64,000 nt of DNA from an uncultured Actinomycetes bacterium (GCA_963825485.1 CAWGTK010000003.1:1429-65428), one strand, 5' to 3'. Positions 1,497-19,836 are shown, counted from the first letter of the stretch. The notes: a model not told the origin generated them from the sequence alone. Numbers and translations are program-made.

Positions 1497-1513
1497 GGAG
1501 GTTGGCCGGCCGT

Positions 1514-3226: not shown

Positions 3227-3228
3227 GG

Positions 3229-3366: not shown

Positions 3367-3459
3367 CGAAGCTCTCCTGGGGTTGAGACGCGTGGTCGGC
3401 GGTGGTGGCGAAGCACCGCATCCCGAAGCCGTCGCTCGGACGCCTTCGGGATGGTCAGG

Positions 3460-3516: not shown

Positions 3517-3690
3517 CACCTTCACCGGTGCGAGGTCGGCGAGCGAGCTTCGGGTCCCTATCGCCGGACTCGCACCGGTCGCCGGCCATCGCGCCCCCGG
3601 ACGCGGAGGTGCGATCGGCCGCCGGACCTCCAGGCGAAGCGGGTGACCCGGTGGCCGTGGCAGCCTGTGGTCGTAGACGCCCGAGGGCGG

Positions 3691-4017: not shown

Positions 4018-4324
4018 CGCGCAGGCGGCCGCCGTCGGATGCTGAGCCCGCCGGCCGCGGCCGCCGGCCGTGCCGCGGGCGCGAGGCCGCGGGCGATGCC
4101 GGGTCCCGGGTACGTGAACCAGTCCGCTTTCGCCAGCGTCGTGCGGTAGGCGCCCGGCAGGAACTTCAGGTTTCAGCAAGCCGGTAACCGAGGCGGCGCC
4201 GGGCGCGAGGGCCACGACGACGGCATGACGAGCGTGCGCGCGGGCGTCCATGACGCCCTCCTTTCGAGGTTCACAACGACAGACGAGGCGGCCTACGCCC
4301 CCATCGGTCGACGGAACGCGCGGC

Positions 4325-4666
4325 TCAGCGGTGCGACAGCACAGCGGCCGCGGCAGGCGGCGGACGCATCGCGAGCGCCGCCGCGAGCAGATAGCCCACA
4401 CGACGCACGACGACCGTCAGCTCGCGCTGCGGCACACACGACCGGCCCCGCAGATGCGCCACCGCAGAGCGCTGGCGACGCCAGCGATCGATCAGCGCCT
4501 CGCCGGGAGCGATGCCGTGCAGCAACAGCAGCGCCAAGACAACGGCCGGCGCCAACAGCAGCGCCACTGCCGAGCCCACGATGAAGATCAGCAACGCGCC
4601 GACAACGAAACCCAGAACCGGCAACGAAACCAGGCGCGCACGTGAGATGACCCCCGACAGACCCAT
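4325..4666 (-). CDS. Small 2-TM membrane protein, paralog of 3691..4017
   Basis: LPVLGFVVGALLIFIVGSAVALLLAPAVVLALLLLHGIAPGEALIDRWRRQR...LAMRPPPAAAAVLSHR. It shares the PGEAxIxRxR and RPPP motifs with its neighbour. Confidence 0.5.
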   Translation of the reverse strand: MGLSGVISRARLVSLPVLGFVVGALLIFIVGSAVALLLAPAVVLALLLLHGIAPGEALIDRWRRQRSAVAHLRGRSCVPQRELTVVVRRVGYLLAAALAMRPPPAAAAVLSHR

Positions 4667-4859
4667 ACCGCGCGAACTTGTACCACGCCTGACAACGTCA
4701 CAACACCTCTACGACCTCTCCTCCCACGCACGATCCTGCGAGCCGCGCGGACGAAGCCGGCCCCGCGGCCGGCACGGGGATGCGCTGCGACGCCTCGTCG
4801 TTCGGACGTGAAGCACGCGTTGCGCTCGAGCTCGGCGAACGCCAGCGCGATCGCTGCGA

Positions 4860-5717
4860 TCAGGCGCGCGGCGACGTCGCCGGCTCCCGCGCACGGTGCG
4901 CAGGTGCGCCGTCGGCGGGATGCTCGCCGGCCGCCACCGTGCGCCGTGCCACGCAGACCGGCCGGCCGTCGACCGGATCGGCGATCATCGTCGCGTGGAC
5001 GCCGAACACGTCGCGCACGAGGCCGGCGGTGATCACGGCGGCGGGCGGCCCGTCCGCGACGATCAGACCGTCTCGCATCACGACGACCCGGTCGGCGTGA
5101 CGGGCGGCGTGGTTGAGGTCGTGCAGCACCATGACGATCGTCGTCCCGCGGACGCGGTTGAGCCGTACGACGAGCTCGAGGATCTCCAGCTGGAAGCGCA
5201 GGTCGAGGAACGTCGTCGGCTCGTCGAGCAGCAGCAGGTCGGTGTCCTGCGCGAGCGCGAGCGCGATCCACGCGCGCTGGCGTTCGCCGCCCGACAGCTC
5301 CGTGAGCGGCCGCTCGGCGAACGCCGTCATCCCGGTGTCGGCGAGCGCGGCACGCACGCTGGCATGGTCCTGGCGCCCGAGCATGCGCAGCCCGCCGACA
5401 TGCGGGAAGCGGCCCTGCTCGACGAGCGCGCCAACCGTCAGCCCGTCGGGCGCCACGGGTCCCTGCGGCAGGACCGCGAGCCGCCGCGCGATCTGGGCCG
5501 ACGACAGGGTCGTCAGCGCGCGGCCGTCGATGTACACGGTCCCGCGGTCGGGGGCCACGAGCCTCGCGAGCGCCTTGAGCAGCGTCGACTTGCCGGCGCC
5601 GTTGGGCCCGACGACCGCCGTGATGCCCGCGGCCGGAAACGTCAGGTCGACGTCTGACAGCACGTCGCGCCCGCCATACGCATGCCCGATACCGTCGCCG
5701 CGAAGGATCTCGCTCAT
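4860..5717 (-). CDS. Fe-siderophore-type ABC importer ATPase (FepC/FecE-like)
   Basis: Walker A GPNGAGKST, signature LSGGERQR, Walker B LLLLDEPT. The ATG at 5717 overlaps the permease stop (ATGA). Confidence 0.92.
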   Translation of the reverse strand: MSEILRGDGIGHAYGGRDVLSDVDLTFPAAGITAVVGPNGAGKSTLLKALARLVAPDRGTVYIDGRALTTLSSAQIARRLAVLPQGPVAPDGLTVGALVEQGRFPHVGGLRMLGRQDHASVRAALADTGMTAFAERPLTELSGGERQRAWIALALAQDTDLLLLDEPTTFLDLRFQLEILELVVRLNRVRGTTIVMVLHDLNHAARHADRVVVMRDGLIVADGPPAAVITAGLVRDVFGVHATMIADPVDGRPVCVARRTVAAGEHPADGAPAHRAREPATSPRA

Positions 5718-6763
5718 CGGCCCATCCGCGCCTGCGAGCGCAGCAAGAGGACCGTGAAGACCGGCGCGCCGACGATCGCGACCGTGACCCCGACCGGGAG
5801 CGTCGGTGACGTGATGAGCCGCGACGGGAGGTTCGCGGCGAGCAGCAGCAGCATCCCGAAGAGGGCGCTGAGCGCAAACAGCCGGCGGCAGTCGGCGCCC
5901 GCGAACGGACGCGCCATGTGCGGGGCGACGAGGCCGAGGAACCCGATCGCCCCGACGACCGAGACAGCCCCGGCCGTCAGCGCGACGGCGACGGCGAGCA
6001 GCCCCACGCGCGCGCGCCGGACGCCCAGCCCCAGCCCCGCCGAGATCTCGTCGCCGAGTTGCAGCGCGTTCGCGAAGCCCGCGCTCGCCAGGCCGAGTGG
6101 CAGGGCGACGAGCGCCCACGGCCAGATCGTGCCCCAGTGCAGCCAGGTCAGGCCGTCGAGCGATCCGATCGTGAACAGCAGCACCGCCCCGATCTGGGTC
6201 GGATGCAGCAGCAGCAGCAGCGACGACGCCGAGGTCAGCATCGCGCCCACGAGCACACCGGTGAGCGTGACGCGCAGCGGGTTGCCGCCGCCCGCCCGGC
6301 TCAGCAGGTAGACGGTCGCCCCGGCCAGCAGCCCGCCCACGGCGGCCAGCAGCGGCAGCGCGGCGCCGTTCGCGCCGCCGGGTCCGTAGACGTTCCACAG
6401 CACGACGAACAGCACGCCGCCCGGGCCGATCCCGATCAGCGTCGGCTCGACGAGCGGGTTGCGCAACACCGACTGCAGCAACGCGCCGGCCAGCCCCAGC
6501 ATCGCTCCTGCGACGAGCGCGATGAGCGCTCCCGGCAGGCGCAGCTGGACGATGATCAAACCGGCGACGGGGTCGCCCTGGCCGGTCAGCGCGGCCACGG
6601 TGCGCGACGGCGAGATCGTCACGCTGCCGAGGCCGACGTTCAGCACGAACAGCAGTCCGACCGCGATCGCGGCGCCGACCCCGGCGAAGGCGGGCCGGCG
6701 CAACGACGAGCCGGCGGCGCCCCGGTCGAGCGCCCTGACCGGGGCTGCGGTCGCGGTCGTCAT
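5714..6763 (-). CDS. FecCD-family ABC importer permease
   Basis: RLPGALIALVAGAMLGLAGALLQSVLRNPLVEP and GFLGLVAPHMAR. ATGA overlap with the upstream permease. Confidence 0.9.
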   Translation of the reverse strand: MTTATAAPVRALDRGAAGSSLRRPAFAGVGAAIAVGLLFVLNVGLGSVTISPSRTVAALTGQGDPVAGLIIVQLRLPGALIALVAGAMLGLAGALLQSVLRNPLVEPTLIGIGPGGVLFVVLWNVYGPGGANGAALPLLAAVGGLLAGATVYLLSRAGGGNPLRVTLTGVLVGAMLTSASSLLLLLHPTQIGAVLLFTIGSLDGLTWLHWGTIWPWALVALPLGLASAGFANALQLGDEISAGLGLGVRRARVGLLAVAVALTAGAVSVVGAIGFLGLVAPHMARPFAGADCRRLFALSALFGMLLLLAANLPSRLITSPTLPVGVTVAIVGAPVFTVLLLRSQARMGR

Positions 6764-7794
6764 GCGCGCGCCGCCCGCTCCTGCAGGTGCATGACCCACA
6801 GGAAGACCGGCACGCCGAGCAGCGTCAGCCAGACGCCGACGGGGACCTCGAGCGGGCTGAACGCCAGCCGCGCCAGCAGGTCCGCCGCCGGCAGCAGCGT
6901 CGCGCCGAGCAGCGCGGACGCCGGCAGGACGACGCGGGCGTCGACGGTGCGCAGGGCGCGGCGCACGACGTGCGGGGCCAGCAGCGCGACGTAGGGGATC
7001 GGCCCGGCCACGGCGGCGACCGCGCCGACCAGCACAGCCGACAGGGCGAGCAGGAAGACCCGCATGCGCACGACGTTCAGGCCCAGCCCCTCGGCCACGT
7101 CGTCGTCGAGGCGCATGAGGTTCAGCCGCCGCCAGGAGGCCATCGCCAGCACGAGCCCGATCGCCGCGAACGGGGCGAGGAGCCGGACGTCGTCCCACGT
7201 CTGCCCCGACAGGCTGCCCAGCAGGTAGGAGAACAGCAGCTGGGCCTGGAGATCCTCACCGAGCGCGACGATCCCCGCCACGCCGGCCGACAGCATCGCC
7301 GAGACTGCGGCGCCGAGCAGGACCGTGCGCACCGGGTCGCTCGCGCTCAGCGTCACCGCAAGGACGAAGCCGCCGGCGACCAGGCCGCCGAGCAGCGCCG
7401 CCCATGGACGCAGGACGTACGGAACGGGGAGCGCGAATACGACGATCGCCGCCATGACGATCCCCGCTCCGGCCGATACGCCGAGCAGTTCGGGTCCGGC
7501 CAGGGGATTGCGCAGACCGTCCTGCAGCAGCACGCCCGTGACGCCGAGACAGGCGCCCGCGACGATCGCCAGCACGAGCCGAGGCAGTCGCAGCTCGAGC
7601 ACGAGGATGTGGTCCAGGCGCGGCCCGCCACCGCCGAGGGTCTCGACGAGCTCACGCGGATCGAGGTTGGGCCCGCCGCGCATAACGCTCGCCGCTGCGA
7701 CCGCGACCAGCACGACCGCCAGCGCGAGCGTCCAGAGCGCGACACGCGATCGGTCTCTGCGCGGCGGCGTGCCGGTCGCGTCGGCCCGGCTCAC
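6760..7794 (-). CDS. FecCD-family ABC importer permease
   Basis: RLPRLVLAIVAGACLGVTGVLLQDGLRNPLAGP and YVALLAPHVVR. The GTG at 7794 overlaps the binding-protein stop (GTGA). Confidence 0.88.
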   Translation of the reverse strand: MSRADATGTPPRRDRSRVALWTLALAVVLVAVAAASVMRGGPNLDPRELVETLGGGGPRLDHILVLELRLPRLVLAIVAGACLGVTGVLLQDGLRNPLAGPELLGVSAGAGIVMAAIVVFALPVPYVLRPWAALLGGLVAGGFVLAVTLSASDPVRTVLLGAAVSAMLSAGVAGIVALGEDLQAQLLFSYLLGSLSGQTWDDVRLLAPFAAIGLVLAMASWRRLNLMRLDDDVAEGLGLNVVRMRVFLLALSAVLVGAVAAVAGPIPYVALLAPHVVRRALRTVDARVVLPASALLGATLLPAADLLARLAFSPLEVPVGVWLTLLGVPVFLWVMHLQERAARA

Positions 7795-8789
7795 GTCAGC
7801 GGCGCCGGGATGTCCTCGGGGTACAGCAGCGGCATGAGCTCGTCGAGCGAGAGCCCGACGGCTCGAGTTCCCTGCGCCGTGTGGGCCCTCGCGTCGACCT
7901 CGTAGACGCGCTTGTTCTTGACCGCCGAGAGCTTGGACCACAGTGGGTTGGACGTCAGGCCCTTCGTCAGCGACGGATCGCCGGGGAACGTCACCGACAG
8001 GATGACGTCGGGATCGTCCTTGAGCACTCGCTCCAGCGAGTATGGGATGTCACCCGCACCATCCTCCTCGACGCCGGCCGGGACCTTCCACGGATACGGG
8101 TTGACGGCCGCCAGCGTGGAGCCGGCGACCGACGTGTTCGTCGAGATGCCGAGCTCCTTCGGCGACCCGTAGATGATCAGCGGAATGACGTCGTCGGGCG
8201 ACGCCTCCCTGTAGGCGGCGATCCTCGCCTCGAGCTTGGAGACGGCCGTCTCGGCCTGCGTCTCGCGGCCCGTCAGCTTCGCGATGTCGCGCAATTGCTT
8301 GATCGTGTCGGTGTACGGACCCGGTCCGACGAGGTACAGCGGCGCCCGCGCCTCGATCGCGCTGCGGAACTTGTCCTGGCGCCCGGCGGCCCCGATGACG
8401 AGGTCGGGCTGCTCGGAGACGACGTCCTCGACGTTCGGGGCGAACAGCGTCCCGCGGATCCGGCCGAGCGCCTTCGCCTTGTCCGGACCGAAGTACGCCG
8501 GCTCGGCGGCGGTCTTGCGACCGATGTCCGTGACCCCCGTCGTGCTCAACCCGAGCTCGGCGACGATGTCGACGCAGGTCACGCTCATGCACGCGATCTT
8601 CGTGACGGCCTGGTCGACGGTGACCTTCGTGCCGCTCTTGTCGATCACGGTGACCGGGAACTTCCCGCTCGCCGTCTGCGCGCTCGCCGCGCCGTCCGAG
8701 TTCGATTCGTCATCGCCGCACGCGCCGATCGTCAGCGCCAGCGCGGCCGCGGTCGCCGCCGCGACGACCCTCCTTCGTGTGCCCCTCAT
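7791..8789 (-). CDS. Substrate-binding lipoprotein, Peripla_BP_2 (FhuD/FecB-like) type
   Basis: Lipobox LTIGAC. PNVEDVVSEQPDLVIGA. The junction with the upstream gene reads TAG-GGGGAG-8 nt-ATG(8789). Confidence 0.88.
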   Translation of the reverse strand: MRGTRRRVVAAATAAALALTIGACGDDESNSDGAASAQTASGKFPVTVIDKSGTKVTVDQAVTKIACMSVTCVDIVAELGLSTTGVTDIGRKTAAEPAYFGPDKAKALGRIRGTLFAPNVEDVVSEQPDLVIGAAGRQDKFRSAIEARAPLYLVGPGPYTDTIKQLRDIAKLTGRETQAETAVSKLEARIAAYREASPDDVIPLIIYGSPKELGISTNTSVAGSTLAAVNPYPWKVPAGVEEDGAGDIPYSLERVLKDDPDVILSVTFPGDPSLTKGLTSNPLWSKLSAVKNKRVYEVDARAHTAQGTRAVGLSLDELMPLLYPEDIPAPLT

Positions 8790-8803
8790 GGTCTGCACTC
8801 CCC

Positions 8804-10588
8804 CTAGTCGGTTCGCATGCGTCCTTCTGTCCCGCCCTCGCTCATGAGCTGGCGGTATGCCGCGCAGCGCGCCATTAGCTCGCCGTCACTGCCCACGTCG
8901 ACGACCTCGCCGGCGCGCAGCAGGACGACCTTGTCGGCTGCCCGCACGGTCGAGCGCCGGTGCGCGATGACGAGGCTCGTCCGCCCCTCCCGCGCCCGCC
9001 GCATCGCCGTCTCGAGCGCCGCCTCGCTGTCGGCGTCGAGGTTCGAGACCGCCTCGTCGAGCACGAGGATCGGGGCCTCGGTGAGCAGCGCGCGGGCAAT
9101 TGCGATTCGCTGGCGCTGACCGCCCGACAGCCGGGCGCCGCGCTCGCCGACAACCGTGTCGTAGCCGTCGTCGAGCGCGGCCGTGATGAAGTCGTGGGCG
9201 AGCGCGTCGCGCGCGGCGCGCTCGACCATGGCATCGCTCGCGCCGGGCCGAGCCATGCCGATGTTGTCGCCCACCGAGCAGTTGAACAGGTAGGTGTCCT
9301 GGGGCACGAAGGCGACGAGCTGCGGCAGGTCGCGCAACGGAAGGTCGGCGACGTCGTGCCCGCCGATCGTGATCCGGCCGCCCGACGGGTCCCACCAGCG
9401 CAGCAGCAGGTGCGCGCAGGTCGACTTACCGGCGCCCGACGCGCCGACGAGCGCGACGGTCTCTCCGGCGGCGGCGGCGAAGCTCACGCCGCGGACGGCG
9501 GCGGGGAGATGCGGCTCGTAGGCGAACGTGACGTCCTCGAAGCCGACGTCGGGCGCGATGCGCTGCGGCAGCGACGCCGACGCACGGTCGGCCACCGCAG
9601 CGGGCTCGGCGAGGAACGCGAGGATCCGCTCGCCGGCGGCGGCCACCGCGCCGAGCTGGTGCAGCGTCTCCCCCAGGGCGACGAGCGGTGCGAACGCGTA
9701 CGCCGCCAGGACGACGGCGACCGGGAACAGCTCGCGCGGCAGGGCACCGTCGGCGACGAGCGCGCCCGCGGTCGCGACCACGGCGACGAGGCCCAGGGCC
9801 ATCAGGGCGTCGGTCAGCGCACGTTCGGCCCCCGAGCGACGCGCGTAGCCGCGCTGCGCGCCCGCCAGCCGCCGCGTCGAGCCGGCCAGCCGGCCGAGCT
9901 GATGCTCTTCCTGGCCGAACACGACGACCTCGCGCAGGCCCTGCACGCTGTCGACCGTGTCGGCGTTGAGGTCGCCGAGCCGGTCGCGCAGGGCTCGGCC
10001 CTGCGCGCCGGCGCGGCGCCGCCACCAGGCCGGCACGCTGGCCACCGCCAGCAGCGGCACGACGAGCACCGCCGCGAGCGCCGGGTCGATCGCGGCGAGG
10101 GCGGCGAGCGCGGCGAGCGGCACGACGACGGCCACGATCAGCGGGCTGAGCGTGTGCGCGAAGAACAGCTCGCACTGCTCGACGTCGGCCAGCACCGTCG
10201 CCCCGACGTCGCCCGCGCGCCGCTTGAGCATGAAGCCCGGCGTCAGGCGCTCGAACGCGTCGTAGCACTGCACGCGCATCTCGACGAGGCAGCGGTAGGC
10301 GAGATCGTGCGCGAACCACGACTCCAGCCAGCCCATCACCGCGCGCGGCAGCACGAGCACGCCCAGCGCGATGAGCCAGGGCCGCAGCTCGCCGACCGAT
10401 GCACCGGTCGCGGCCAGCCCGACGACGTAGGCGCCGGCGGCCGCGGCGGACAGCGCGAGCGCCTGGTCGACGATCCCGCACGCGATCGTCGCCGCGAGCT
10501 TGCGCCGCAAGCCGCGCAGGATGACGAGCAGCGGGCTGAAGCGGCGCAGGCTCGCGCGCGTCGGCGGTGCGGCGACCGTGACCGTCAC
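8804..10588 (-). CDS. ABC half-transporter (TMD-NBD, exporter fold; CydC/YbtQ/IrtB-like)
   Basis: GASGAGKST, LSGGQRQR, ILVLDEA. 4-nt overlap with the upstream partner. Confidence 0.9.
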   Translation of the reverse strand: MTVTVAAPPTRASLRRFSPLLVILRGLRRKLAATIACGIVDQALALSAAAAGAYVVGLAATGASVGELRPWLIALGVLVLPRAVMGWLESWFAHDLAYRCLVEMRVQCYDAFERLTPGFMLKRRAGDVGATVLADVEQCELFFAHTLSPLIVAVVVPLAALAALAAIDPALAAVLVVPLLAVASVPAWWRRRAGAQGRALRDRLGDLNADTVDSVQGLREVVVFGQEEHQLGRLAGSTRRLAGAQRGYARRSGAERALTDALMALGLVAVVATAGALVADGALPRELFPVAVVLAAYAFAPLVALGETLHQLGAVAAAGERILAFLAEPAAVADRASASLPQRIAPDVGFEDVTFAYEPHLPAAVRGVSFAAAAGETVALVGASGAGKSTCAHLLLRWWDPSGGRITIGGHDVADLPLRDLPQLVAFVPQDTYLFNCSVGDNIGMARPGASDAMVERAARDALAHDFITAALDDGYDTVVGERGARLSGGQRQRIAIARALLTEAPILVLDEAVSNLDADSEAALETAMRRAREGRTSLVIAHRRSTVRAADKVVLLRAGEVVDVGSDGELMARCAAYRQLMSEGGTEGRMRTD

Positions 10589-12327
10589 GCGACCCCGTCC
10601 TGGCGCGCGACGAGCTGCGCGTAGGCGCCGCCGGCGGTGATCAGCTGCGCGTGCCCGCCCAGCTCGACGGCCCGGCCGGCGTCGAGCACGACGATCCGGT
10701 CGGCCGACCGCACGGTCGACAGGCGGTGCGCGATGACGAGCGTCGTGCGGCCCGCTCGGACGCGCTCGAGCGCCTCCTGCACGATGCCCTCGCCCTCGAC
10801 GTCGACGCTCGACGTCGCCTCGTCGAGCACGAGGATCGGTGCATCCTTGACGAGGGCGCGGGCGATCGCCAGCCGCTGACGCTGGCCGCCCGACAGCGTC
10901 AGGCCACGATCGCCGATGACCGAGTCCGCACCAGCCGGCAGCGCCTCGACGAACTCCGCGGCGTTGGCCAGCCGCAGGGCCCGGCGCACCTCGTCGGGCG
11001 TGGCGCCGGGCCGGCCGAAGGCGACGTTGTCGAAGACCGTGCCGTAGAACAGGTAGACGTCCTGGGACACGACGGAGGCAAGCGATCGCAGCCGCGCGAG
11101 CCCGATCTCGCGCACGTCCACACCATCGACGCAGACGCGGCCCGCGTCGGGATCGAAGAAGCGCAGCAGCAGCGACAGCACGGTCGTCTTGCCGGCGCCT
11201 GAGGGCCCCACGATCGCCACGGTCTCGCGTGGCGAGACGGCGAGTGAGAAGTCGTCCAGCGCCGGGCGGGCGCCGGCGCGGTACGCGAAGCTGACGTGGT
11301 CAAAGGACACCGCCGGCGACGAGGTCCCGGCGATCCGGTCGCGCGATGGCCGCGACGCGCCCACCGGATCGGCGATCGCGGGCTCGGCCTCGAGCAGGTC
11401 GAAGATGCCGCCCGCCGCGGCCTCCGCCGAGTATGTGGAGTGAAAGGCCGTCTGCAGGTCCTTCAGCGGCCGGAACGCCTCGCGGCTGAGCAGCAGCAGC
11501 ACGAGCAGCTCGGTGATCGACAGGGCACCGGCCTCGAAGCGCAGCGCGCCGACGCCGATCGCCAGCGCCAAGCCGCCGCTCTCGGCCAGGCCGATCACGC
11601 CGACGCTCATGTTCGAGATCGCCGTCAGCCGCAGCGACGCGCGGTAGAAGCCCCACGACCGCTCGCGCAGGTTCTCCCCGTGCGTGCGCGTGGCGCCGAG
11701 CGCCTTGAGCGTCGACATCCCCTGCACCGCGTCGAGGTACTCCGCGCCGAGCGTGCGCCAGCGCCGCCAGTAGGTCCGGCTGCTCTCGCTCAGCATCCGC
11801 CGCATGACGCGCGGGGCGAACACCACCGAGGCGCCGCACGCGAGCACGACGACGCCCACGACCGGGTCGACGGTGGCGATGATCGCCACGCACGCGAGCG
11901 TCCCGACGAGCGACACGAGCAGCTGCGGGACGAACACCGCCGCGTAGCGGTCCAGCGCCTCGACGCCGTTGACGAGCGTCGTCAGCACCATCCCCGTGCG
12001 GGTGCGCAACAGGTAACCCGGCCCGAGCGCGAGCAGGTGCTCGTACAGGCGCGCGCGCAGGGCCAGCTTGACCGTCGCGGCGATCTCCGTGGCGGCCTGT
12101 TCGCGGGCCCAGATCAGGCCAGCGCGCAGAACGATGAGCACGATCGACGCGAGCAGCAACCCGGTGATGTCGGTGAACGGCCGGCCGTCGAAGATCCGCG
12201 CCAGCGCGTGCGCGACGACGAGCCCCTGGCCGATGTACGTGGCGGTGATCGCCAGCCCGATCGCCACGGCGACGAGCACCTGCGCTCGCGCGCAGCGCAC
12301 GAGCGCCAGCAGGCGACGGTTCAGCAT
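10585..12327 (-). CDS. ABC half-transporter (TMD-NBD, exporter fold; CydD/YbtP/IrtA-like)
   Basis: GPSGAGKTT, LSGGQRQR, ILVLDEAT. The start is 15 nt after the cyclodehydratase stop. Confidence 0.9.
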   Translation of the reverse strand: MLNRRLLALVRCARAQVLVAVAIGLAITATYIGQGLVVAHALARIFDGRPFTDITGLLLASIVLIVLRAGLIWAREQAATEIAATVKLALRARLYEHLLALGPGYLLRTRTGMVLTTLVNGVEALDRYAAVFVPQLLVSLVGTLACVAIIATVDPVVGVVVLACGASVVFAPRVMRRMLSESSRTYWRRWRTLGAEYLDAVQGMSTLKALGATRTHGENLRERSWGFYRASLRLTAISNMSVGVIGLAESGGLALAIGVGALRFEAGALSITELLVLLLLSREAFRPLKDLQTAFHSTYSAEAAAGGIFDLLEAEPAIADPVGASRPSRDRIAGTSSPAVSFDHVSFAYRAGARPALDDFSLAVSPRETVAIVGPSGAGKTTVLSLLLRFFDPDAGRVCVDGVDVREIGLARLRSLASVVSQDVYLFYGTVFDNVAFGRPGATPDEVRRALRLANAAEFVEALPAGADSVIGDRGLTLSGGQRQRLAIARALVKDAPILVLDEATSSVDVEGEGIVQEALERVRAGRTTLVIAHRLSTVRSADRIVVLDAGRAVELGGHAQLITAGGAYAQLVARQDGVA

Positions 12328-12342
12328 CGCGCCTGCGGCGGC

Positions 12343-14613
12343 TCAGGCATGGGCGAGCGGGAACAGGTTCAGCTCGTGCTCGCCGAGCGGCCGCTCCCGC
12401 CAGCCCAGCTCGACGGCCTCGTCCTGCAGGCGCCGCCGGCCGAGGAACGGAAACGCGGCCGGGAAGTTCGGCACCAGCCCCGGCACGACGATCCGCACGA
12501 CGCGCAGCCCGCTGGCGGCGACGTCGGGTGTCGTCAGATCGACGCAGAAGACCTCCAGGCCGGCGTGCTCGACGAGTGCGCGGTAGTGGTCGGCCGAGCG
12601 CTCCGCGAGGACCGGCAGGTCGTCGCACGTGATCGTCCCGCACGGTTGCAGCCACGGCCGCACGCGCTCGATCGCGCGCGGATCGAGATAGACCTGCGGC
12701 TGGCATTCGAGGTCGCCGACGTCGCGGAAGTCGCCGCGGAAGTCGTCGAGATAGGCGCGATCGGAGCGCCACGGCTTGATGAAGCCACCGCTCTTCAGCC
12801 CGAGGCGCACGGCATCGCGGAAGAGGCCATGCTCCCGCAGGAGGTCGCGGCTGATCTCCTGGTTGGTCAGGCCTTCGCTCCAGGCCTTCAGCGCCGCCTC
12901 GAGCGGATCGGCTCGGGCGGCGAACCCGATGCTCAGCAACTGCTCCTCGACGTTCTCCACGATGCCGGCCACCACCGGCACGCCGAGGCGGTTGGGCAGC
13001 GAGAGCAGGCTGCCACGCTGACCGAGCCGCTCGGGCTCCCCCTCCCAGACGGCGGCGAGCCGGTGCGGGAGCTCGATCGACGGCAGGGCGGGCAGGTTCG
13101 CCCACCACACCATCGTTGCGTGGCGCTCGATGAGCTCCTCGAGCCCGGCGCAGATCGCGTCGTCGAGCGTCGGCCCCGCGGCGATGCCGGGATAGAGCGG
13201 GAAGTTCGTCGGCGGCTCGTCCACGAACTCCGCGACGTGCCAGTTGACGTAGGCGAAGCTCGCCGGCACCCATGCCCCGACGTCGCGGGTGAGCGAACGG
13301 CCTCGAATCCATTGCACCGGCAGATCGGCGTCGAAGCGCACGAACGGGAAGCCGGGCGCGTCGTACTGCGCATCGGAGTACAGGACCATTGCCCGCGGGT
13401 CGAGCGCGTCCTCGCCCGCCGCGCACAGCTGCGCGTGGCTCGCGCGCCGCAGGCGGTCCGCTTGGACCCAGTTGCCGCAGTAGCGCTCGACGCCCTCGCC
13501 GATCGCGCTCTGGCCGACGCGCTCCGGCGTGCCGTACAGCAGGCTGCCGCCGCAGACGGGATTGATCGCCCACGGGGCGAGGCGCAGGGTGTCGCTCACC
13601 CGGGCGACGACCGTCGTCAGCACGCGCGGGATGACCGGCGGGTGGGTGATCTGCGACAGCGACGCGATCAACCCGGTGCGCTCGTCGAGCAGCAGCGCGG
13701 CACCGGACGTCGACGTGTTGCGGTAGTGAGCCGCGCCGGGCGCGTCGGGCCGCGGGAGCACGGGATGCGGTATCACCGCGAAGGCGCGCGGCTCGAGCTC
13801 GATCTCGTTGCCCAGCAGGGCGCTCGTGCCACCGCTGCGCCAGCGCTCGATCTCGACGAACGCGACCGCGAGCATCCAGCGCAGCTCTCGCGCCGGCGGG
13901 AGGTAGCCGCGAGGCGCGAGCGTGTCGGAGGCCAGCGCCTCGAACAGCGACTCCTCGAGCATGGCGCAACGGCGGCGATCGAGGACGTCGCGGTAGCGCA
14001 ACCCGACATCGGCGCCGATCGCCGGACCCAGCCATGCGCTCTCGCGATCGAAATGAAACGGCACCCAGGCAACCCCGGCCGCCGCGCAGCGTTCGTCGAC
14101 CTCGGTCAGGTACCCGACGTCCAAGCGGTCCCGCAGCACGACGAGCACGGCCTCCTCGACGCCCGCGAGCGCGCCAGGGTCGTCGCTGCATGTCGGCAGC
14201 AGCTCGACACCGTCGTCGGCGACGTGCTCGCGCGCGGCCTCGACGAGCGCGGCGTCACCCGCGAGCGCGACGCGCAGCGGACGCGGTGCCGCGGGGCGGC
14301 GACCGAAGCGTAGACAGTGCTCCTCGCCCGGCGCGTGCGGCAGATCGGTGATGCAGCCCTGCGCGCCCAGCACCTCGACGATCTCCTCGAAGCCACCGGT
14401 CAGGCCGGTCTGCGCCGCGACCTCGAGCGCCGATCGAGTGCCATCGCAGAGGAGCAGCGCCTCGCGCACGACCGCGGCGGGCGACGCGATCTCGAACGCG
14501 GCGCCCGTCGGCGTCAGTGCGAGGGTGTGGTCGCCACGCAGTTCACGGAGATCGACGCGGACGAGGCGCGGCCCGATCGTGGTCTGAACTGCCGATGCGT
14601 CGTGATCGCTCAA
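12343..14613 (-). CDS. Fused azoline-forming cyclodehydratase: PqqD-like RRE, E1-like (SagC/cyclodehydratase) domain and YcaO domain (PatD/LynD-like architecture)
   Basis: N-terminus FEIASPAAVVREALLLCDGTRSALEVAAQTGL..IVEVLGAQGCITD (RRE-like). Middle VALAGDAAL...GVAWVPFHFDRESAWLGPAIG. YcaO core SAIGEGVERYCGNW..PGIAAGPTLDDAICAGLEELIERH. TTG start per the track. Confidence 0.85.
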   Translation of the reverse strand: MSDHDASAVQTTIGPRLVRVDLRELRGDHTLALTPTGAAFEIASPAAVVREALLLCDGTRSALEVAAQTGLTGGFEEIVEVLGAQGCITDLPHAPGEEHCLRFGRRPAAPRPLRVALAGDAALVEAAREHVADDGVELLPTCSDDPGALAGVEEAVLVVLRDRLDVGYLTEVDERCAAAGVAWVPFHFDRESAWLGPAIGADVGLRYRDVLDRRRCAMLEESLFEALASDTLAPRGYLPPARELRWMLAVAFVEIERWRSGGTSALLGNEIELEPRAFAVIPHPVLPRPDAPGAAHYRNTSTSGAALLLDERTGLIASLSQITHPPVIPRVLTTVVARVSDTLRLAPWAINPVCGGSLLYGTPERVGQSAIGEGVERYCGNWVQADRLRRASHAQLCAAGEDALDPRAMVLYSDAQYDAPGFPFVRFDADLPVQWIRGRSLTRDVGAWVPASFAYVNWHVAEFVDEPPTNFPLYPGIAAGPTLDDAICAGLEELIERHATMVWWANLPALPSIELPHRLAAVWEGEPERLGQRGSLLSLPNRLGVPVVAGIVENVEEQLLSIGFAARADPLEAALKAWSEGLTNQEISRDLLREHGLFRDAVRLGLKSGGFIKPWRSDRAYLDDFRGDFRDVGDLECQPQVYLDPRAIERVRPWLQPCGTITCDDLPVLAERSADHYRALVEHAGLEVFCVDLTTPDVAASGLRVVRIVVPGLVPNFPAAFPFLGRRRLQDEAVELGWRERPLGEHELNLFPLAHA

Positions 14614-14713
14614 CCCATCTCCCAGCCTCTTGGAGAACGCGAGCGACAGGGTCGCCCGCTCGGAGTCCTGCCGCCGTCACGCCACGGCCCGTCGCGCGAC
14701 CGGCACGGCAGCC

Positions 14714-14741
14714 GGGGGCCCGCACGAACGTGCCGGCCCCC
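14714..14741 (-). terminator. GC-rich stem-loop between the small ORF and the cyclodehydratase (possible attenuator or partial terminator)
   Basis: GGGGGCCCGCAC-gaac-GTGCCGGCCCCC: a 12-bp stem with one mismatch and no obvious U-tract. Confidence 0.4.
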
Positions 14742-14790
14742 GCGCTACCGCCGTCACCGGTCGATCGAACGACCGGCGAGCGTCACCGTG

Positions 14791-14883
14791 CTACCGCGAC
14801 CAGCGGAAGTGCGCCACCACCGTCGAGTGGTTGTCGGCGGGCAGCACCTTCGTCTTGGGAGAGAGGTCGATGGACTTGATCAT
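14791..14883 (-). CDS. 30-aa candidate RiPP precursor peptide (below the ORF-track size cut-off)
   Basis: AAGGAG, then 6 nt, then ATG 14883. Sequence MIKSIDLSPKTKVLPADNHSTVVAHFRWSR, TAG at 14791-14793. Same strand as the YcaO gene, 177 nt upstream of it. An alternative upstream in-frame ATG at 14907 has no SD. Confidence 0.6.
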   Translation of the reverse strand: MIKSIDLSPKTKVLPADNHSTVVAHFRWSR

Positions 14884-15056
14884 GTGCCACTCCTTTTGCG
14901 CGTGCATCGATGTCGAGCACGTCGTCGGGGTACCTGCATTACGAACGCGCGTCCTTATTGCAAGGTAGCATCAATACGGAGTTGCTCGCAATCCGGAGTG
15001 CTTCACGTGCCGCGCAAGCCGGAGCATTGGAGCTCGAGTCGCCTACGACCTCCGCG

Positions 15057-16976
15057 CTATTCGAAGGCGGCGCCGAGGATGCCGAGCAGGTTGCTGCCGT
15101 TGAGCAGGGCGTCGAGCGCGCGTTTGCCCCCGCGGGCGATGCTGATGAGCACGTCGAGCGGCAGCCCCTCGGCGGCGGCGCGGGCGATGGCTGCCTGGGG
15201 CTCGGTCAGCTCGCCGGCAGTTCGCGCGTCGGCGATGCCGCGGCGCAGTCCGTCGCGCAGCGCTGCGGCGAGCGCGCCGTCGTCGATGTTGTGCTCGCGC
15301 AGGAACGTCACGCGCCGGTCGGTGGTGGCGAGCGCGAGGGTGAGCTCCTCGCGGGTGACGCGCAGGTTGCAGGCGGCACCGTCGAGCGCCGAGAGCCCGA
15401 GTTGCTCGGCGACCTGGCTGAGGCCCGTCGCGTCGGGCCAGACGCGTGGCTTGCAGGGATCGCGCGCCGACAGCGGCTTGTAGCTGCCGCCGCCGAGCGC
15501 GACGTAGGTGCCGCCGAGCGCTCCCGCGAGCGTGAGCGCCGCGAGGAGGCTGGCGGCGGATGCCGCGCCGCCCGTCAGCGCGATCGGAATGAGCGCGAGC
15601 AGGGCCAGCGCCGCGGCCACGAGGAACGACGTGCTGAACGCGTGCGTGGCGGCGCGGTGGACCTCGTCGGTGAGGTCGGCCTGCAGCCGTGCGTAGGCGA
15701 CCCGGTCCTCCGCCGGCGGCTGCTGGGCGGCGAACGCCGGGCGCAGGTCGGGCAGCTGGCCTCCCGCCAGCGCGATGCGCGTGGCGATCGCGTCGGCGAG
15801 ATCGAGCTTCAGCGCGGGCGAGAGGCGGGCGTCGAGCAGCTTGGCGGTGCCCGCTCGCTCAGCGGCGATCTGCTCGTCCTGCAATGCGGACGCGAACACC
15901 GGTGTGAGCACGAGCAGCCCGACGACGACGCCCGCGTGGCGCGCGGTGATCGTCCACGCGCCGCGGCGCGCGAGCTGTGCCGCGTCGACGTCGGCAATCC
16001 CCGCCCCGGGCTCACCGAGCGCGCGTCGCGTCAGCGCCCACAGCGTGAGCCCGAGCCCGACGCCGATCAACACCTGCGGCGCGATCGTCCAGCCGGCCTG
16101 CGCGCCGGGCAGCAGGCCGAGCGCCGCCAGGCCTCCGGCCAGCGCAACCGTACCGGCGGCGACGAGCCGCTGCTCGGCGGCGAATCTGCGGGCGAGCATC
16201 GCGGTCGCCAGCGCGGCCAGCGGCATCACCGAGACGATCGCGGCCGCGCGGAGGGGCGAGTGGCGCAGTCCCTCGGTCAACAGGATCACGAGCAAGAAGA
16301 GCGCCGCGGTGAGAGCGGCCGAGACCAGTGCGAGTGCGACCGTCGGCGCCGCCGTGCCGGGGCCAGCGGTCGTCGCCGGCCGCAGGGAGGCCGCACGCGG
16401 CATGTCGGCGACGTCGCGCGACAGCGGCCGCAGCAGCGCGACGAGCGCGAGCGGCACCTGCACGGCGAAGATCGCCTGCCAGGAGAACAGCTCCGTCAGC
16501 GCGCCGCCGAGCGCCGGACCGATCGCGGCGCCCGCGATCCCCGCGGCGGCCCAGATGCGCGAGCCCGCCGCTTGGCCGCGCTGGGCGACGAGCAGCTCGA
16601 GCGCGGCCGCGATGACCGCGGCGCCGCCGACCGCCTGCGCACAGCGCGCGGCGACGAGGACGGCGAGACTCGGAGCCAGCGCGCAGGCCAGCGAGGCCGC
16701 CGCGAAGGCGACGATCCCGAGCCGCCAGGCGGCGATCGCACCGCCGCGGCGCACCAGCACCGCGGCGGGCAGCGCGACGAGCGCGAGCACGAGGTTGAAC
16801 GACGTCAGCACCCAGGCGACATCGGTGACGTCGGCGCGAAACTCGCGCAGGACGGCGGGCAGGCCGAGCGTCACGACCGACGAGTCGGCCAGCACGATCG
16901 CGACCGCCAGCGCGACGACCACCGTTCGCGTGCGGCCCTGCTCCTCGCGGGCAGAACCTGGCGGGCGCCCGCTCAC
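15057..16976 (-). CDS. MFS transporter (DHA2/EmrB-like, multi-TM) with a ~190-aa soluble C-terminal extension
   Basis: VVVALAVAIVLADSSVVTLGLPAVLREF, then many TM segments. The C-terminal helical region begins SYKPLSARDPCKPRVWPD... Confidence 0.85.
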   Translation of the reverse strand: MSGRPPGSAREEQGRTRTVVVALAVAIVLADSSVVTLGLPAVLREFRADVTDVAWVLTSFNLVLALVALPAAVLVRRGGAIAAWRLGIVAFAAASLACALAPSLAVLVAARCAQAVGGAAVIAAALELLVAQRGQAAGSRIWAAAGIAGAAIGPALGGALTELFSWQAIFAVQVPLALVALLRPLSRDVADMPRAASLRPATTAGPGTAAPTVALALVSAALTAALFLLVILLTEGLRHSPLRAAAIVSVMPLAALATAMLARRFAAEQRLVAAGTVALAGGLAALGLLPGAQAGWTIAPQVLIGVGLGLTLWALTRRALGEPGAGIADVDAAQLARRGAWTITARHAGVVVGLLVLTPVFASALQDEQIAAERAGTAKLLDARLSPALKLDLADAIATRIALAGGQLPDLRPAFAAQQPPAEDRVAYARLQADLTDEVHRAATHAFSTSFLVAAALALLALIPIALTGGAASAASLLAALTLAGALGGTYVALGGGSYKPLSARDPCKPRVWPDATGLSQVAEQLGLSALDGAACNLRVTREELTLALATTDRRVTFLREHNIDDGALAAALRDGLRRGIADARTAGELTEPQAAIARAAAEGLPLDVLISIARGGKRALDALLNGSNLLGILGAAFE

Positions 16977-17016
16977 GATCTGGATCGTGTCGCTTGCATC
17001 TGGGTGCCCAGGCGTG

Positions 17017-19596
17017 TCACGTCGCGGTGGGGATCCTCACGCGATCGGCGATCAGCGGTCGCAGTCGCTTGCCGGGCCAGCCGCTGCGGTAGCCGACGAG
17101 CGCGATGATCGCCGGGACGAGCACGGTGCGGACGAGGAAGGCATCGATCAGCAGGCCGGCGGCCATCACGAACGCCAGCTCGCGAAACGCGGCGATCGGC
17201 ACGAGCGCCATCGCCCCGAAGGACAGCGCGAGCACGATGCCGGCGGCGGAGATCGCGCGCGCCGCGCCTGCGCCAGCAGCGATGATCGCCTCGTTGAGCG
17301 GCCGGCGGCGTGCCTCGTCCCAGACGCGGCCGACCAGGAAGATGTTGTAGTCCGAGCCCAGCGCCACGAGCAGCACGCCGGCCGCGACGGGCACGTAGTA
17401 CGTGACCTCGTCCTGGCCGAGGATTCCGCGGAAGAACGCGACGGTGAGCCCGAGCGCGGCGAGCGGGCCGAGCGTCGCGGCGGCGACGAGGTAAAGCGGC
17501 GCGACGAGCCCGCGCAGGAAGATCACGAGCACGAGCAGCACGGCGAGCAGGACCGCGGGAATCACCCGCAGCAGATCGTCGGTGGTGCCGTCGATCGTCT
17601 CCTGAGACAGCGCGGTGTCCCCCGCGAAGCTCGCCTGCGCGCGAGGCAGCCCGGCGCGCGCCAGCAGCCCGGGCGCTGCGCGCTGCAGTCGCCGGATGCG
17701 TTCCACCGCGCCAGCTCCGAGCGGGTCGGCCTTCAGCGCGATCACGTAGCGCGCGGCGTCCCCGTTGCGCGCGAGGACCGCCCCCAGCGTCAGGCGCGTG
17801 GGATTCGACGCCGGGCCGACGACCTGCGCGACGCCTGGCTGGGCGCCGAGCAGGCTCTGCAGCCGCGCGAGGCTGGCTCGGCGTGACGTGATCGCGGGCT
17901 GCTCGACGACCAGGACCGTCGGCGACAGGATGCCCGGGACGAACCCGCGGCTGGCCTCGACGTACGCCACCCGCGCGTTGCTGTCGGCCGGCAGGCCGCG
18001 GATCAGCGGATTGCCGAGATCAAGCCAACCGAGCCCGCAGCCCATCGCCGCCAGCACGACCACGCACCCGGCGATCGTCCGGCGCGGTGCGCGGACCGCC
18101 GTCGCGACGACGCGGTGCGCGACCCCGGGCCGCGTCCGATCTCGCGCCCCCCGGCTCGCCGGGCTGGGCACATGGGGCCAGAACAACCACCGGCCCAGCA
18201 AGGCCAGGGTCGCCGGGATGAACGTCATCGAGACCGCGAGGGCCACGAGGATCGCCATCGCCATCCCGGGCCCGAACGCGCGCAGGAAGCCGAGGTCTGC
18301 GACGGCCAGCGCGGCACACGCGGCCGCGACCGCCAGCCCGCAGGTCAGGATGATCGGCGTCAGCTCGGCCGTCGTGCGGCGCGCCGCCGCGGCCGGCGCG
18401 TCACCCGCCTCTAGCCGACGGCGAAAGCGCGACAAGAAGAAGAGCGAGTAGTCGGTCACGACGCCGAACAGCAGCGCGACGACGATCGGCTGCACCTCGC
18501 TGGGCACCGACACGCCGACGAGCTTGCCGAGCGTCGCGACGAGCCTGATCGAGATCAGATACGCCAGCGCGACCGTCGTGAGGTTGACCAGTGGAGCCAG
18601 CAGCGCACGGCAGTACAGGCCAACGGCACCGAGCACGAGCAGCAACGTCGCGATCTCCACGAGCGGCAGGTGCGAGGCGATCACGTCCGCCTGCTGAGCG
18701 CGCGCCGCGATCGCCCCGGTGACACCCACGAACGCATCCGGTGCGCCCGGCGCCACATGTACGTCGGCGAAGCGCCGCGCCGCGCCGATCCGCCCGTTCT
18801 GCCCGATGCTCGGCGCAAACAGCAGCGGCAACACCATCGTCGTCGAACGCTCGCGCACGAGCGGCGCGACGCCGATCGCGTTGGAGAGCACGTAGCCGCG
18901 CGTCTCGCGCAACTGGGGCAGATCGCCCTGGTCGAGCGCGACGACGCTGCGCGCGACGTAGGCCTGCTGAGGCAGCGACAGGCCGTCCGCGTCGCGGGCG
19001 ACGACGATCGTGCGACTCAGCAGCGGGAAGCTGAACAGCGCAGCGGAGCGCTCCTCGGTCGTGATCGCCCTTGCGCCGGCGGGCACGAGATCGCCGAGCG
19101 CTCCCACCTGCGCCTCGCGGATCGACGGCAGCCCCAGCGTGACCGCCAGCGCGAGCGCGATCCACCCGACCACCACCACGAACCGGCCGCGGACGACGAG
19201 CGCCGCGAAGCGATCCGCCAGCCCGCCAGGAGCGCCCGCCGCGCGCGACAACCGCCGATCTTCGCCGCCGCTCGCTGCCGCCGGTGCGTCCGCGGCGACG
19301 AGCTCGCGCAGCATGGCGACGACGTCGGTCCGCGCGGCCCGGCCGCCAGCGCCCGCGGCCGCCGCCAGCCTCGCCAGCAGCGCCCGACGCCGGCGCCGCA
19401 CCCGTCGCACCGGCATGCCCGCAGCCGTCGCGATCTCGTCGTCGTCCAGACCGTGACGGAGCGCGAGCTCGAGCAGCGCGCGATCGGCGGGGTCCAACCG
19501 TCGGAACTCCGCGTCCAGCGCGGGGGCCGCGACCATCGTCGGGACACTACGGTTTCCGCCCAGCCGCCGCGCGCCCGACTTCGAGCAGCGGCGCAT
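17017..19596 (-). CDS. MMPL/RND-superfamily transporter with an in-frame N-terminal sigma-70 region-4/LuxR-like HTH
   Basis: HTH-like LDPADRALLELALRHGLDDDEIATAAGMPVRRVRRRRRALLARL. MMPL body from LADRFAALVVRGRFVVVVGWIALALAV. Start uncertain (19596, 19536 or 19314). Confidence 0.8.
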   Translation of the reverse strand: MRRCSKSGARRLGGNRSVPTMVAAPALDAEFRRLDPADRALLELALRHGLDDDEIATAAGMPVRRVRRRRRALLARLAAAAGAGGRAARTDVVAMLRELVAADAPAAASGGEDRRLSRAAGAPGGLADRFAALVVRGRFVVVVGWIALALAVTLGLPSIREAQVGALGDLVPAGARAITTEERSAALFSFPLLSRTIVVARDADGLSLPQQAYVARSVVALDQGDLPQLRETRGYVLSNAIGVAPLVRERSTTMVLPLLFAPSIGQNGRIGAARRFADVHVAPGAPDAFVGVTGAIAARAQQADVIASHLPLVEIATLLLVLGAVGLYCRALLAPLVNLTTVALAYLISIRLVATLGKLVGVSVPSEVQPIVVALLFGVVTDYSLFFLSRFRRRLEAGDAPAAAARRTTAELTPIILTCGLAVAAACAALAVADLGFLRAFGPGMAMAILVALAVSMTFIPATLALLGRWLFWPHVPSPASRGARDRTRPGVAHRVVATAVRAPRRTIAGCVVVLAAMGCGLGWLDLGNPLIRGLPADSNARVAYVEASRGFVPGILSPTVLVVEQPAITSRRASLARLQSLLGAQPGVAQVVGPASNPTRLTLGAVLARNGDAARYVIALKADPLGAGAVERIRRLQRAAPGLLARAGLPRAQASFAGDTALSQETIDGTTDDLLRVIPAVLLAVLLVLVIFLRGLVAPLYLVAAATLGPLAALGLTVAFFRGILGQDEVTYYVPVAAGVLLVALGSDYNIFLVGRVWDEARRRPLNEAIIAAGAGAARAISAAGIVLALSFGAMALVPIAAFRELAFVMAAGLLIDAFLVRTVLVPAIIALVGYRSGWPGKRLRPLIADRVRIPTAT

Positions 19597-19836
19597 GCGG
19601 TTTCAAGCGGCCAGGGACGCCCACCGCGAGGTCGAGTACCCGCGGTCGATCTCGTCCAGGTCGCGCCGGGTACGGGAGCGGGCTCGGCGCGCCGGATCCG
19701 ACTCGAGGCGGGGCCGGTGTCCGCCGGTGACACACTCGCCCCGTCGGCCGAGGCGCCCGACGCGATCCTGACCGCCCCGTGACGCCGGCGCCGTGTCGGC
19801 GAGGGCGGCAATGGCCGGCGCGCGAGCAGCGCGTGG

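Follow-up and report, generated by a model that had tools for sequence, protein, structure and literature searches.

A minimal streptamidine-type operon with a fused YcaO enzyme in an uncultured actinomycete, and the possibility that its peptide serves metal uptake

A 64-kb stretch of DNA from an uncultured Actinomycetes bacterium (hereafter the window, to which coordinates refer unless a related locus is named) carries eight minus-strand genes, at 4860-14883, that are tightly or translationally coupled. These genes encode a 30-aa precursor peptide, a fusion enzyme, two ATP-binding cassette (ABC) half-transporters, and an importer composed of a substrate-binding protein (SBP), two FecCD permeases and an ATPase; the fusion enzyme combines an E1-like domain and a YcaO domain with the recognition element (RRE) typical of peptides that are made ribosomally and then modified post-translationally (RiPPs). 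On sequence homology to 49 related loci (designated by L numbers) and to six genuine streptamidine (ami) loci, the locus belongs with the RiPP clusters of the streptamidine superfamily, of which it is a minimal variant with a fused enzyme; the architecture is already known. The reading favoured here, with only slightly better than even confidence, is that the modified peptide made by this operon is exported and returns, likely as a transition-metal complex, under the control of a Fur-family regulator.

The operon opens with the precursor gene (MIKSIDLSPKTKVLPADNHSTVVAHFRWSR; 14791-14883), which is preceded by an AAAGGAG Shine-Dalgarno (SD) sequence, has a G+C content at third codon positions (GC3) of 0.94, and is followed by a 177-nt spacer containing GC-rich hairpins (14614-14790). 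Beyond the spacer lie the gene for the 756-aa fusion enzyme (12343-14613) and, 15 nt further on, that for the first half-transporter, T1 (10585-12327), which overlaps the gene for the second, T2 (8804-10588), by 4 nt (GTGA). The SBP gene (7791-8789/8798) starts 14 nt past the T2 stop codon at a junction reading TAG-GGGGAG-8 nt-ATG, a gap in which a GGGGAG SD alone is found and neither a promoter nor a terminator was seen. The remaining importer genes, for permease 1 (6760-7794), permease 2 (5714-6763) and the ATPase (4860-5717), the last gene of the module, are joined to the SBP gene and to one another by GTGA, ATGA and ATGA overlaps, respectively. A scan of 3400-20500 called no sigma-70-like promoter and found terminator-like sites at chance level, a result that is uninformative in DNA of 73% G+C; the window as a whole has a G+C content of 70-76%. 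Co-transcription of precursor, YcaO enzyme, exporter pair and chelate-type importer as one unit is a supported prediction from this arrangement.

The coordinates, strand and junctions of these genes agree with those given in a first-pass annotation of the window, which had also placed a stem-loop after the 30-aa open reading frame and described the enzyme as an RRE/E1/YcaO protein. The stem-loop is borne out in so far as the 177-nt spacer folds strongly (minimum free energy -112 kcal/mol, z about -3.2), but neither a U-tract nor a terminator-like site was called in it. Conserved in L001, a contig of a metagenome-assembled genome whose YcaO protein is 92% identical to that of the window, the spacer probably sets the ratio of precursor to enzyme by acting as an attenuator or stabiliser. 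The description of the enzyme holds as well. Specifically, the protein matches PF02624 (E=6e-50) and scores 250 bits with TIGR03604, for which the cutoff is 219; the profile built from 20 homologues aligns with TruD, LynD and MusD almost from end to end (E about 1e-45); and an AlphaFold2 model (pLDDT 81, pTM 0.78) contains an N-terminal beta3-alpha3 module, the topology of an RRE, and has LynD as its best Foldseek match (E=3e-35, TM-score about 0.6), followed by TruD and MusD. Profile and model thus support a predicted three-domain RRE/E1-like/YcaO protein, and, of the profile searches that the first-pass annotation had proposed for the locus, those with PF02624, TIGR03604, PF01497 and PF01032 returned matches.

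Although LynD/TruD/PatD and MusD share the architecture and fold of the window enzyme, which passes the TIGR03604 cutoff, identity to these proteins is only about 20%, and the window locus, unlike the cyanobactin systems, has neither PatA/PatG proteases nor Cys-rich cassettes. A closer relationship is found with the streptamidine enzymes. The YcaO domain (residues 308-755) aligns with residues 10-454 of AmiD at 33.7% identity (blastp, E=2e-61), and the N-terminal domain (16-294 of the family profile) with residues 9-271 of AmiB (hhalign, 95% probability, E=3.5e-8); as judged by these alignments, the enzyme is AmiB and AmiD fused in one protein.

The streptamidine biosynthetic gene cluster (BGC) was characterized in Streptomyces albidoflavus J1074 and belongs to a family known from over 230 species (Russell et al. 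2021, Chem Sci, PMC8442711). Its parts include the FecBCDE-like genes amiF1-F4, the precursor gene amiA, the dehydrogenase gene amiE and the ABC transporter genes amiT1 and amiT2, and its product is HLSATH bearing an N-terminal six-membered amidine (PMC8442711). When compared with the S. albidoflavus locus (L050, retrieved via its precursor), the window displays the same parts and the same logic: a short precursor, an E1-like partner together with a YcaO protein, two half-transporters, and an SBP with two FecCD permeases and an ATPase. The transporter genes of the two loci are colinear, with pairwise identities of 34-51% and nearly identical sizes (581 and 594 aa for AmiT1 and AmiT2, 580 and 594 aa for T1 and T2). 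T1 is 40% identical to AmiT1 over 552 aa and T2 38% identical to AmiT2 over 593 aa; identities of the SBP, permease 1, permease 2 and ATPase to AmiF1, AmiF2, AmiF3 and AmiF4 are 37%, 46%, 40% and 51%, respectively. Additionally, both cores are flanked by His residues (HLSATH in ami, HSTVVAH in the window), and both loci have a Fur-family operator, or in the window a degenerate and Nur/Zur-ambiguous candidate for one, about 70 nt 5' of the precursor gene.

Despite these similarities, several differences separate the two loci. AmiB and AmiD are separate proteins in ami; the window lacks the AmiC (S15 hydrolase), AmiE (dehydrogenase) and AmiX of that cluster; the ami precursor has a NALVENPF follower, whereas that of the window lacks it and ends in F-x-W; the leader is basic in the window and acidic in ami; and the window, unlike ami, places the precursor first with all genes co-directional. 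AmiX, Peptidase_S9, the two S-adenosylmethionine (SAM) methyltransferases and the second YcaO of sister clusters likewise have no homologues within the window. Network 1 of the streptamidine study already contains precursors orthologous to those of the sister loci, for example from Actinomyces gerencseriae (that of L027), Arcanobacterium phocae (that of L030) and Agromyces, and it also contains the YcaO proteins of L027 and L030; these precursors lack motifs A and B (…NALV(E/H)NPF…) and presumably belong among the 22 motif-less precursor peptides reported there (PMC8442711). The 28-30-aa peptides of the window and of the loci of architecture b, described below, are absent from the tables of that paper (0 matches to APHNH).

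The precursor of the window consists of a leader, MIKSIDLSPKTKVLP, and a core region, ADNH-STVVAH-FRW-SR; a C-terminal fragment of the peptide reads ADNHSTVVAHFRWSR. Homologous peptides, each with its own SD, are encoded directly 5' of the homologous YcaO gene in 44 of the 49 related loci, and by its SD, its GC3 and these homologues the predicted 30-aa reading frame is a real gene. The precursors of those 44 loci share a motif near the C-terminus, P-x(1-3)-[N/H]-H-x6-F-x-W, and their cores are rich in His (HNH, NHHGH, HCHH). Closest to the window precursor are those of L056, L057 and L058, which have the same type of basic MIK… leader; that of L056 carries two copies of the core, …LLPPDHHPVPQSPFQWS….

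These cores bear directly upon the chemistry of the product. The first-pass annotation had pointed to azolines as classic metal ligands, and the window core does hold one Ser-Thr pair. That pair, however, is not kept across the family, and the core of the sister precursor in L004, HNHAVQAAVFGWN, is without any Ser, Thr or Cys, so azoline formation, the chemistry of the cyanobactin heterocyclases, cannot be the conserved modification. An amidine, the modification of the characterized family product streptamidine, is more likely to be the chemistry common to the family. Klebsazolicin and bottromycin, too, arise by YcaO-dependent formation of an amidine from a free N-terminal amine; they are ribosome-targeting antibiotics whose clusters contain added tailoring genes and no linked importer.

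L001 provides the limits of the unit: it is homologous to the window from about 125 nt 5' of the precursor ATG as far as the stop codon of the ATPase gene, and its flanking sequence is unrelated. Because homology stops at these points, the conserved unit, as defined by this comparison, is an eight-gene segment of about 10 kb at about 4860-15010. Both the window and L001 represent an architecture (a) in which all eight genes are co-directional. In architecture b, found in Jiangella, Microlunatus and Nonomuraea, an operon of ATPase, permease and SBP genes diverges from one of T1, T2, precursor, YcaO and two methyltransferase genes; architecture c (Microbacterium, Cellulomonas, Glycomyces and others) resembles b and has a second YcaO gene; and in architecture d (Varibaculum, Arcanobacterium, Mobiluncus) an operon of ATPase, SBP, permease and Peptidase_S9 genes diverges from one of precursor, YcaO, T1 and T2. 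The genuine ami loci of Arthrobacter, Nocardiopsis and Rhodococcus display the same divergent operon of importer and S9 genes, and in that of Dermatophilus only the S9 peptidase and two exporters were called.

Across these arrangements, which number at least four, the fused YcaO gene, the exporter pair and the FecCD/ATPase importer genes are found together in 44 of 49 loci, with the SBP confirmed by Pfam on representative loci. Three of the five exceptions are truncated contigs, and two (L006 and L033) are genuine; the importer is linked in all six ami loci as well. Thus the check, proposed in the first-pass annotation, of whether YcaO loci are ever separated from the importer came out in favour of linkage in about 44 of the 49, despite rearrangement and despite a change of importer type in two close relatives. 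In L057 (Sinosporangium, 12574-14157) and L058 (Saccharothrix, 10652-17197), an SBP_bac_5 gene of the Opp/Nik/Cnt type lies directly after the YcaO gene in place of the FecCD type. The L058 importer comprises an SBP_bac_5 protein, two BPD_transp_1 proteins and two ATPases, together with a second SBP_bac_5 protein, and the L057 contig stops just past its SBP gene. T1, T2 and the precursor are retained in both loci despite the swap, and in both a gene for a LuxR-type response regulator adjoins the precursor gene. The retention of an importer while its type is exchanged argues strongly, at the level of gene content, for a function that includes taking the product back up.

The same data bear upon the explanation that the locus unites two independent functions, with a RiPP and exporter cassette standing by chance beside an importer of siderophores, haem or cobalamin. 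Importers of the PF01497/FecCD class are very common beside unrelated genes, and one locus, L010, has an unrelated IdeR-boxed importer adjoining. Moreover, the window importer resembles AmiF1-4 (37-51% identity) more than it does its counterparts in the nearest YcaO relatives (24-43%), so that the module appears to be mosaic and its importer to have been acquired separately. However, the 14-nt gap between the T2 and SBP genes holds an SD and no promoter or terminator, the limits of homology with L001 take in the importer, and linkage persists in about 44 of 49 loci and in all six ami loci, through rearrangement and through replacement of the importer class. Chance adjacency is largely refuted by these comparative data and is extremely unlikely.

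Several further features of the related loci deserve mention in their own right. In L010 (Microbacterium karelineae), a second full importer of SBP, two permeases and ATPase lies directly after the second YcaO gene (14061-18480) and is bracketed by IdeR boxes, whereas the importer of the cluster itself has a Zur box, at 6269. A gene for Peptidase_S9, of the prolyl-oligopeptidase family, is present in or beside the importer operon in L029-L047 (for example L036, 7996-9177) and L052-L055, a set that spans Actinomycetaceae and genuine ami loci and in whose precursors a Pro just ahead of the core is invariant; this peptidase could remove the leader or degrade the re-imported peptide. In L003-L007 and L045 (about 12100-13700) and in L029, L032 and L043, which represent architecture b and Mobiluncus, the cluster comes with two genes for class I SAM methyltransferases, and methylated products are therefore implied in those lineages. 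Surplus genes in L056 (2781-17369) encode a DPPIV/S9-S15 peptidase, a luciferase-like monooxygenase, a methyltransferase and an M24 peptidase.

With regard to the transporters themselves, T1, which is kept in 44 loci, and T2 each combine PF00664 and PF00005 in an exporter fold, and their top NCBIfam matches are CydD/CydC-like and fall below cutoff. The importer is of the siderophore/metallophore uptake type (type II importer, cluster A-II SBP): its SBP is a Peripla_BP_2 lipoprotein of the chelate-binding class (PF01497, E=2.5e-20) with a signal peptide ending in LTIGAC, and has YfiY, HtsA and FepB as its closest solved structures; permeases 1 and 2 match PF01032 (E=8e-78 and E=1e-75), and the ATPase is FecE/FhuC-like (NF008409, 292 bits, below cutoff). 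NCBIfam equivalog scores for the importer proteins are all below their cutoffs, and hence no specific substrate is assignable.

An exporter pair directly after an enzyme of the TOMM (thiazole/oxazole-modified microcin)/heterocyclase type would also be expected of an antibiotic or otherwise bioactive RiPP, with T1 and T2 secreting the product and protecting the producer and the importer being unrelated or serving salvage; antibiotic amidine RiPPs, such as klebsazolicin and bottromycin, are indeed known (PMC8442711). Streptamidine, however, has no antibacterial or antifungal activity (PMC8442711). Furthermore, a producer would not normally be expected to couple a high-affinity importer of its own toxin translationally to the exporters, importer linkage is kept even through a change of class, and metal-sensor boxes are present in the family as described below. 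An antibiotic role is thus very unlikely.

Sequences resembling the operators of metal-responsive regulators are found at the promoters of these clusters in relatives of the window. In all Actinomycetaceae loci, a box resembling the IdeR/DtxR consensus, TTAGGTTAGGCTAACCTAA (PMC4598388), with 1-3 mismatches, lies between the importer operon and the precursor gene. The high-GC loci of architectures b and c have in most cases, in the divergent promoter, a box of the actinobacterial Zur type (taaTGaNAANNNTTNtCANta; PMC5472717), for which the family consensus is TAATGATAATCATTATCAATA. When 36 family promoter windows were searched, the Zur pattern was matched in 20 at up to two mismatches, in 24 at up to three and in 33 at up to four, as compared with means of 0, 0.15 and 0.8 for composition-matched shuffled palindromes. 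The loci matched include all six genuine ami loci, in which a Zur box is found 60-100 nt 5' of amiA and is essentially the sole such match in 20 kb; in L050, Zur-type boxes occupy 5794-5814 and 9911-9931, the second of which overlaps the final codons of amiF4 and stands 70 nt 5' of amiA. In L056, the closest distinct relative of the window, the Nur box (tTGCaa-N5-ttGCAA; PMC2691836) is matched at exactly three sites (4915, 9647 and 17401), which are the three promoters of the cluster, and nowhere else, a result that none of 23 control hexamer patterns reproduces. Zur is an established regulator of the metallophore clusters for coelibactin, ethylenediamine-disuccinate (EDDS) and pseudopaline (PMC6103462). 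Among the papers available, a literature search returned no paper tying streptamidine-type clusters to Zur or zinc and none on a RiPP zincophore. At the level of the family, the case for a metal role is considerably strengthened by the Zur, IdeR/DtxR and Nur-like boxes predicted in the relatives' promoters, which provide independent support for it; the chelate-binding class of the SBP and the His-rich cores point the same way.

In the window, a palindrome at 14956-14976 on the minus strand (TATTGATGCTACCTTGCAATA), 73-93 nt 5' of the precursor ATG, resembles a Fur-family operator. It is the sole match to the Zur pattern at up to five mismatches in 64 kb; it fits the 6-5-6 Nur box with three mismatches, and among 24 control patterns only that of TTGCAA matches the window promoter. 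The palindrome overlaps a possible -35 element (TTGCAA), belongs to the upstream stretch of about 125 nt that L001 retains, and stands 73 nt from the ATG, the same position as that of the amiA-proximal Zur box of L050. As a separate observation, the precursor start codon of L058 is preceded, by about 20 nt, by a near-perfect 20-bp palindrome (TGTGTTGAAAAATTCACACA, about 8050-8070) that fits no metal-regulator pattern tried.

Against these indications stands a series of results that weigh upon the reading of the locus as one for metal uptake. Firstly, the window palindrome is degenerate, with 5 of 16 mismatches to the Zur pattern and 3 of 12 to that of Nur, so that Fur-family metal control of the window copy is suggested and no more strongly put; no credible IdeR, CsoR, NikR, MntR or Fur box was found in the window, and L057 and L058 have no recognisable metal box. 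Secondly, the NCBIfam models NF040714 and NF040715 match neither the window nor the sister precursors even at E<=10, as compared with 67.9 bits for AmiA. Thirdly, a search of solved structures for the direction of T1/T2 transport returned generic ABCB/MsbA/Sav1866-type matches only. Fourthly, AmiC and AmiE are essential for streptamidine, although many BGCs of the family lack amiB, amiE and amiX (PMC8442711); tblastn found no homologues of AmiC (Peptidase_S15) or AmiE in the window or in the 49 sister loci, and the chemistry of the window may therefore differ from that of streptamidine. Lastly, the first-pass annotation had presented a YcaO-made metallophore as a new system, but the architecture is that of the published streptamidine family, whose authors themselves hypothesized a role in metal import and obtained negative results: purified streptamidine showed no metal binding in chrome azurol S (CAS) assays or in liquid chromatography coupled to mass spectrometry (LC-MS) with Fe, Co, Cu, Mg, Mn, Ni and Zn, and starving an amiD mutant of metal revealed no phenotype (PMC8442711). 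These data are the main argument against a metallophore, yet they are not decisive, because the LC-MS was acidic, the product was possibly trimmed, and the strains have redundant uptake. A metallophore appears plausible from the gene content and promoters, is neither new nor proven as a proposal, and leaves the metal, Zn, Ni or Fe, uncertain.

Two further explanations draw upon the same negative data. According to the first, the peptide is made upon metal starvation and acts without chelation, in a metal-sparing, chaperone-like or protective role, while the FecCD system imports a metal or cofactor for its biosynthesis. Consistent with this idea, Zur regulons hold many genes other than those for metallophores (PMC6103462), metal binding by streptamidine was undetected, and deletion of amiF1-F4 abolished streptamidine production (PMC8442711). 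The last result, however, could reflect loss of the amiA promoter as opposed to a biosynthetic need for the importer, since the amiA-proximal Zur box overlaps the end of amiF4, and the exchange of FecCD for an Opp/Nik importer of the peptide/metallophore type is hard to explain by cofactor supply. A non-chelating role is therefore unlikely, if worth bearing in mind.

According to the second, the peptide is an exported and re-imported signal, similar to a pheromone, that acts upon a cytoplasmic target as in Opp-dependent signalling of Gram-positive bacteria, with metal control being secondary. The logic of making, exporting and importing a peptide fits this explanation equally well, L057 and L058 combine an importer of the Opp/Dpp peptide-permease type with the LuxR-type regulator gene beside the precursor, streptamidine bound no metals, and the clade of the window is without canonical Zur or IdeR boxes. 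Yet no receptor or regulator gene is conserved inside the module, most members of the family have chelate-type PF01497/FecCD importers, and Zur, IdeR or Nur boxes are found at cluster promoters in more than 45 loci. Signalling is distinctly unlikely, and each of the four alternatives considered is judged less likely than exchange of a metal-bound peptide.

A working model for metal exchange by the window operon would proceed as follows. The leader of the 30-aa precursor would be bound by the N-terminal RRE of the AmiB-AmiD-type fusion, allowing the YcaO domain, with ATP, to activate a backbone amide in the His-containing C-terminal core (P-x-[N/H]-H-x6-F-x-W); the product would most probably contain an amidine ring as in streptamidine, possibly with an additional oxazoline at the Ser-Thr pair of the window core. 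The leader may then be removed by a peptidase encoded elsewhere, MusD-like cleavage by the YcaO enzyme itself being a speculative alternative. The small modified peptide would be exported by the T1/T2 heterodimer and re-imported, most likely together with a transition metal, by the translationally coupled SBP, FecCD permeases and ATPase, and a Fur-family metal sensor bound to the palindrome over the -35 region would probably repress the operon when the cell is metal replete.

This putative cycle has parallels in known systems. Staphylopine and pseudopaline (Cnt), coelibactin and [S,S]-EDDS are likewise made, exported and re-imported under a metal-sensing repressor (PMC6103462), and the Cnt/Nik-like SBP_bac_5 importer type is also used by some relatives of the window; in contrast to the opine, nonribosomal-peptide and aminopolycarboxylate ligands of those systems, that of the window would be ribosomal and YcaO-modified, with metal binding only proposed. 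Methanobactins and the MNIO-made bufferins are likewise ribosomal peptides with dedicated transport in a metal-homeostasis context, but they are made by unrelated enzymes (MbnBC/MNIO as opposed to YcaO) and bind copper via oxazolone/thioamide or thiooxazole groups; the window operon, all eight genes of which are accounted for, contains no MNIO/DUF692 gene. It may tentatively be proposed, with confidence well short of even, that the whole streptamidine superfamily, the variant in the window included, consists of ribosomal, YcaO-modified, His-based metallophores that are exported and re-imported under the metal sensor of each lineage. On this reading, most Actinomycetota would use Zur, the Actinomycetaceae IdeR/DtxR, and the clade of the window a Nur-like homologue of Fur. 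By analogy with the opine metallophores, a sensor type that varies by lineage could mean that the ligand is of broad spectrum.

The genes that neighbour the operon, for MFS (15057-16976), MMPL (17017-19596) and PepSY_TM (1514-3421) proteins, lie where the first-pass annotation placed them, and its use of them as context for the unit is not sustained: as candidate members they were rejected, being found in 0 of the 49 related loci, L001 included, and lying outside the limits of homology with L001. No flanking direct or inverted repeats marking a mobile element were found, the only repeats being ABC-ATPase paralogy and GC-rich noise. The downstream neighbours (261-3421, minus strand) look copper-related rather than connected with the module; they comprise a lipoprotein that combines an HVHEGTC…GPHF motif like that of Cu,Zn-superoxide dismutase with a CPDVC stretch of the Sco1/SenC type, which may reflect a frameshift or a fusion, and next to it the PepSY_TM gene. 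The MMPL reading frame has about 110 surplus N-terminal residues with a weak match to Sigma70_r4_2, and its start may be mis-set or a small helix-turn-helix gene may have been merged with it. Further upstream, at 19837-25301, are two two-component systems of the NarL/LuxR type and a Crp-like regulator.

What streptamidine-type RiPPs do is acknowledged to be an open question, and their clusters occur widely among the Actinomycetota, with S. albidoflavus J1074 and Actinomycetaceae of the vagina and mouth among the carriers. What is added here is that linkage of the importer through class replacement, together with operators of the Zur, IdeR and Nur types, makes a discarded idea about metals specific and cheaply testable. 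With one enzyme, one precursor and neither a protease nor a dehydrogenase, the module of the window is the simplest for reconstituting both the chemistry and the cycle of export and import. Should the metallophore hypothesis be wrong, the locus would be another uncharacterized member of a known RiPP family. Should it be true, the streptamidine-type peptides would constitute the first class of YcaO-derived metallophores and would include the first ribosomal zincophore or nickelophore, and a function, open since 2021, would be provided for a BGC family of hundreds of species that include model streptomycetes and human-associated Actinomycetaceae.

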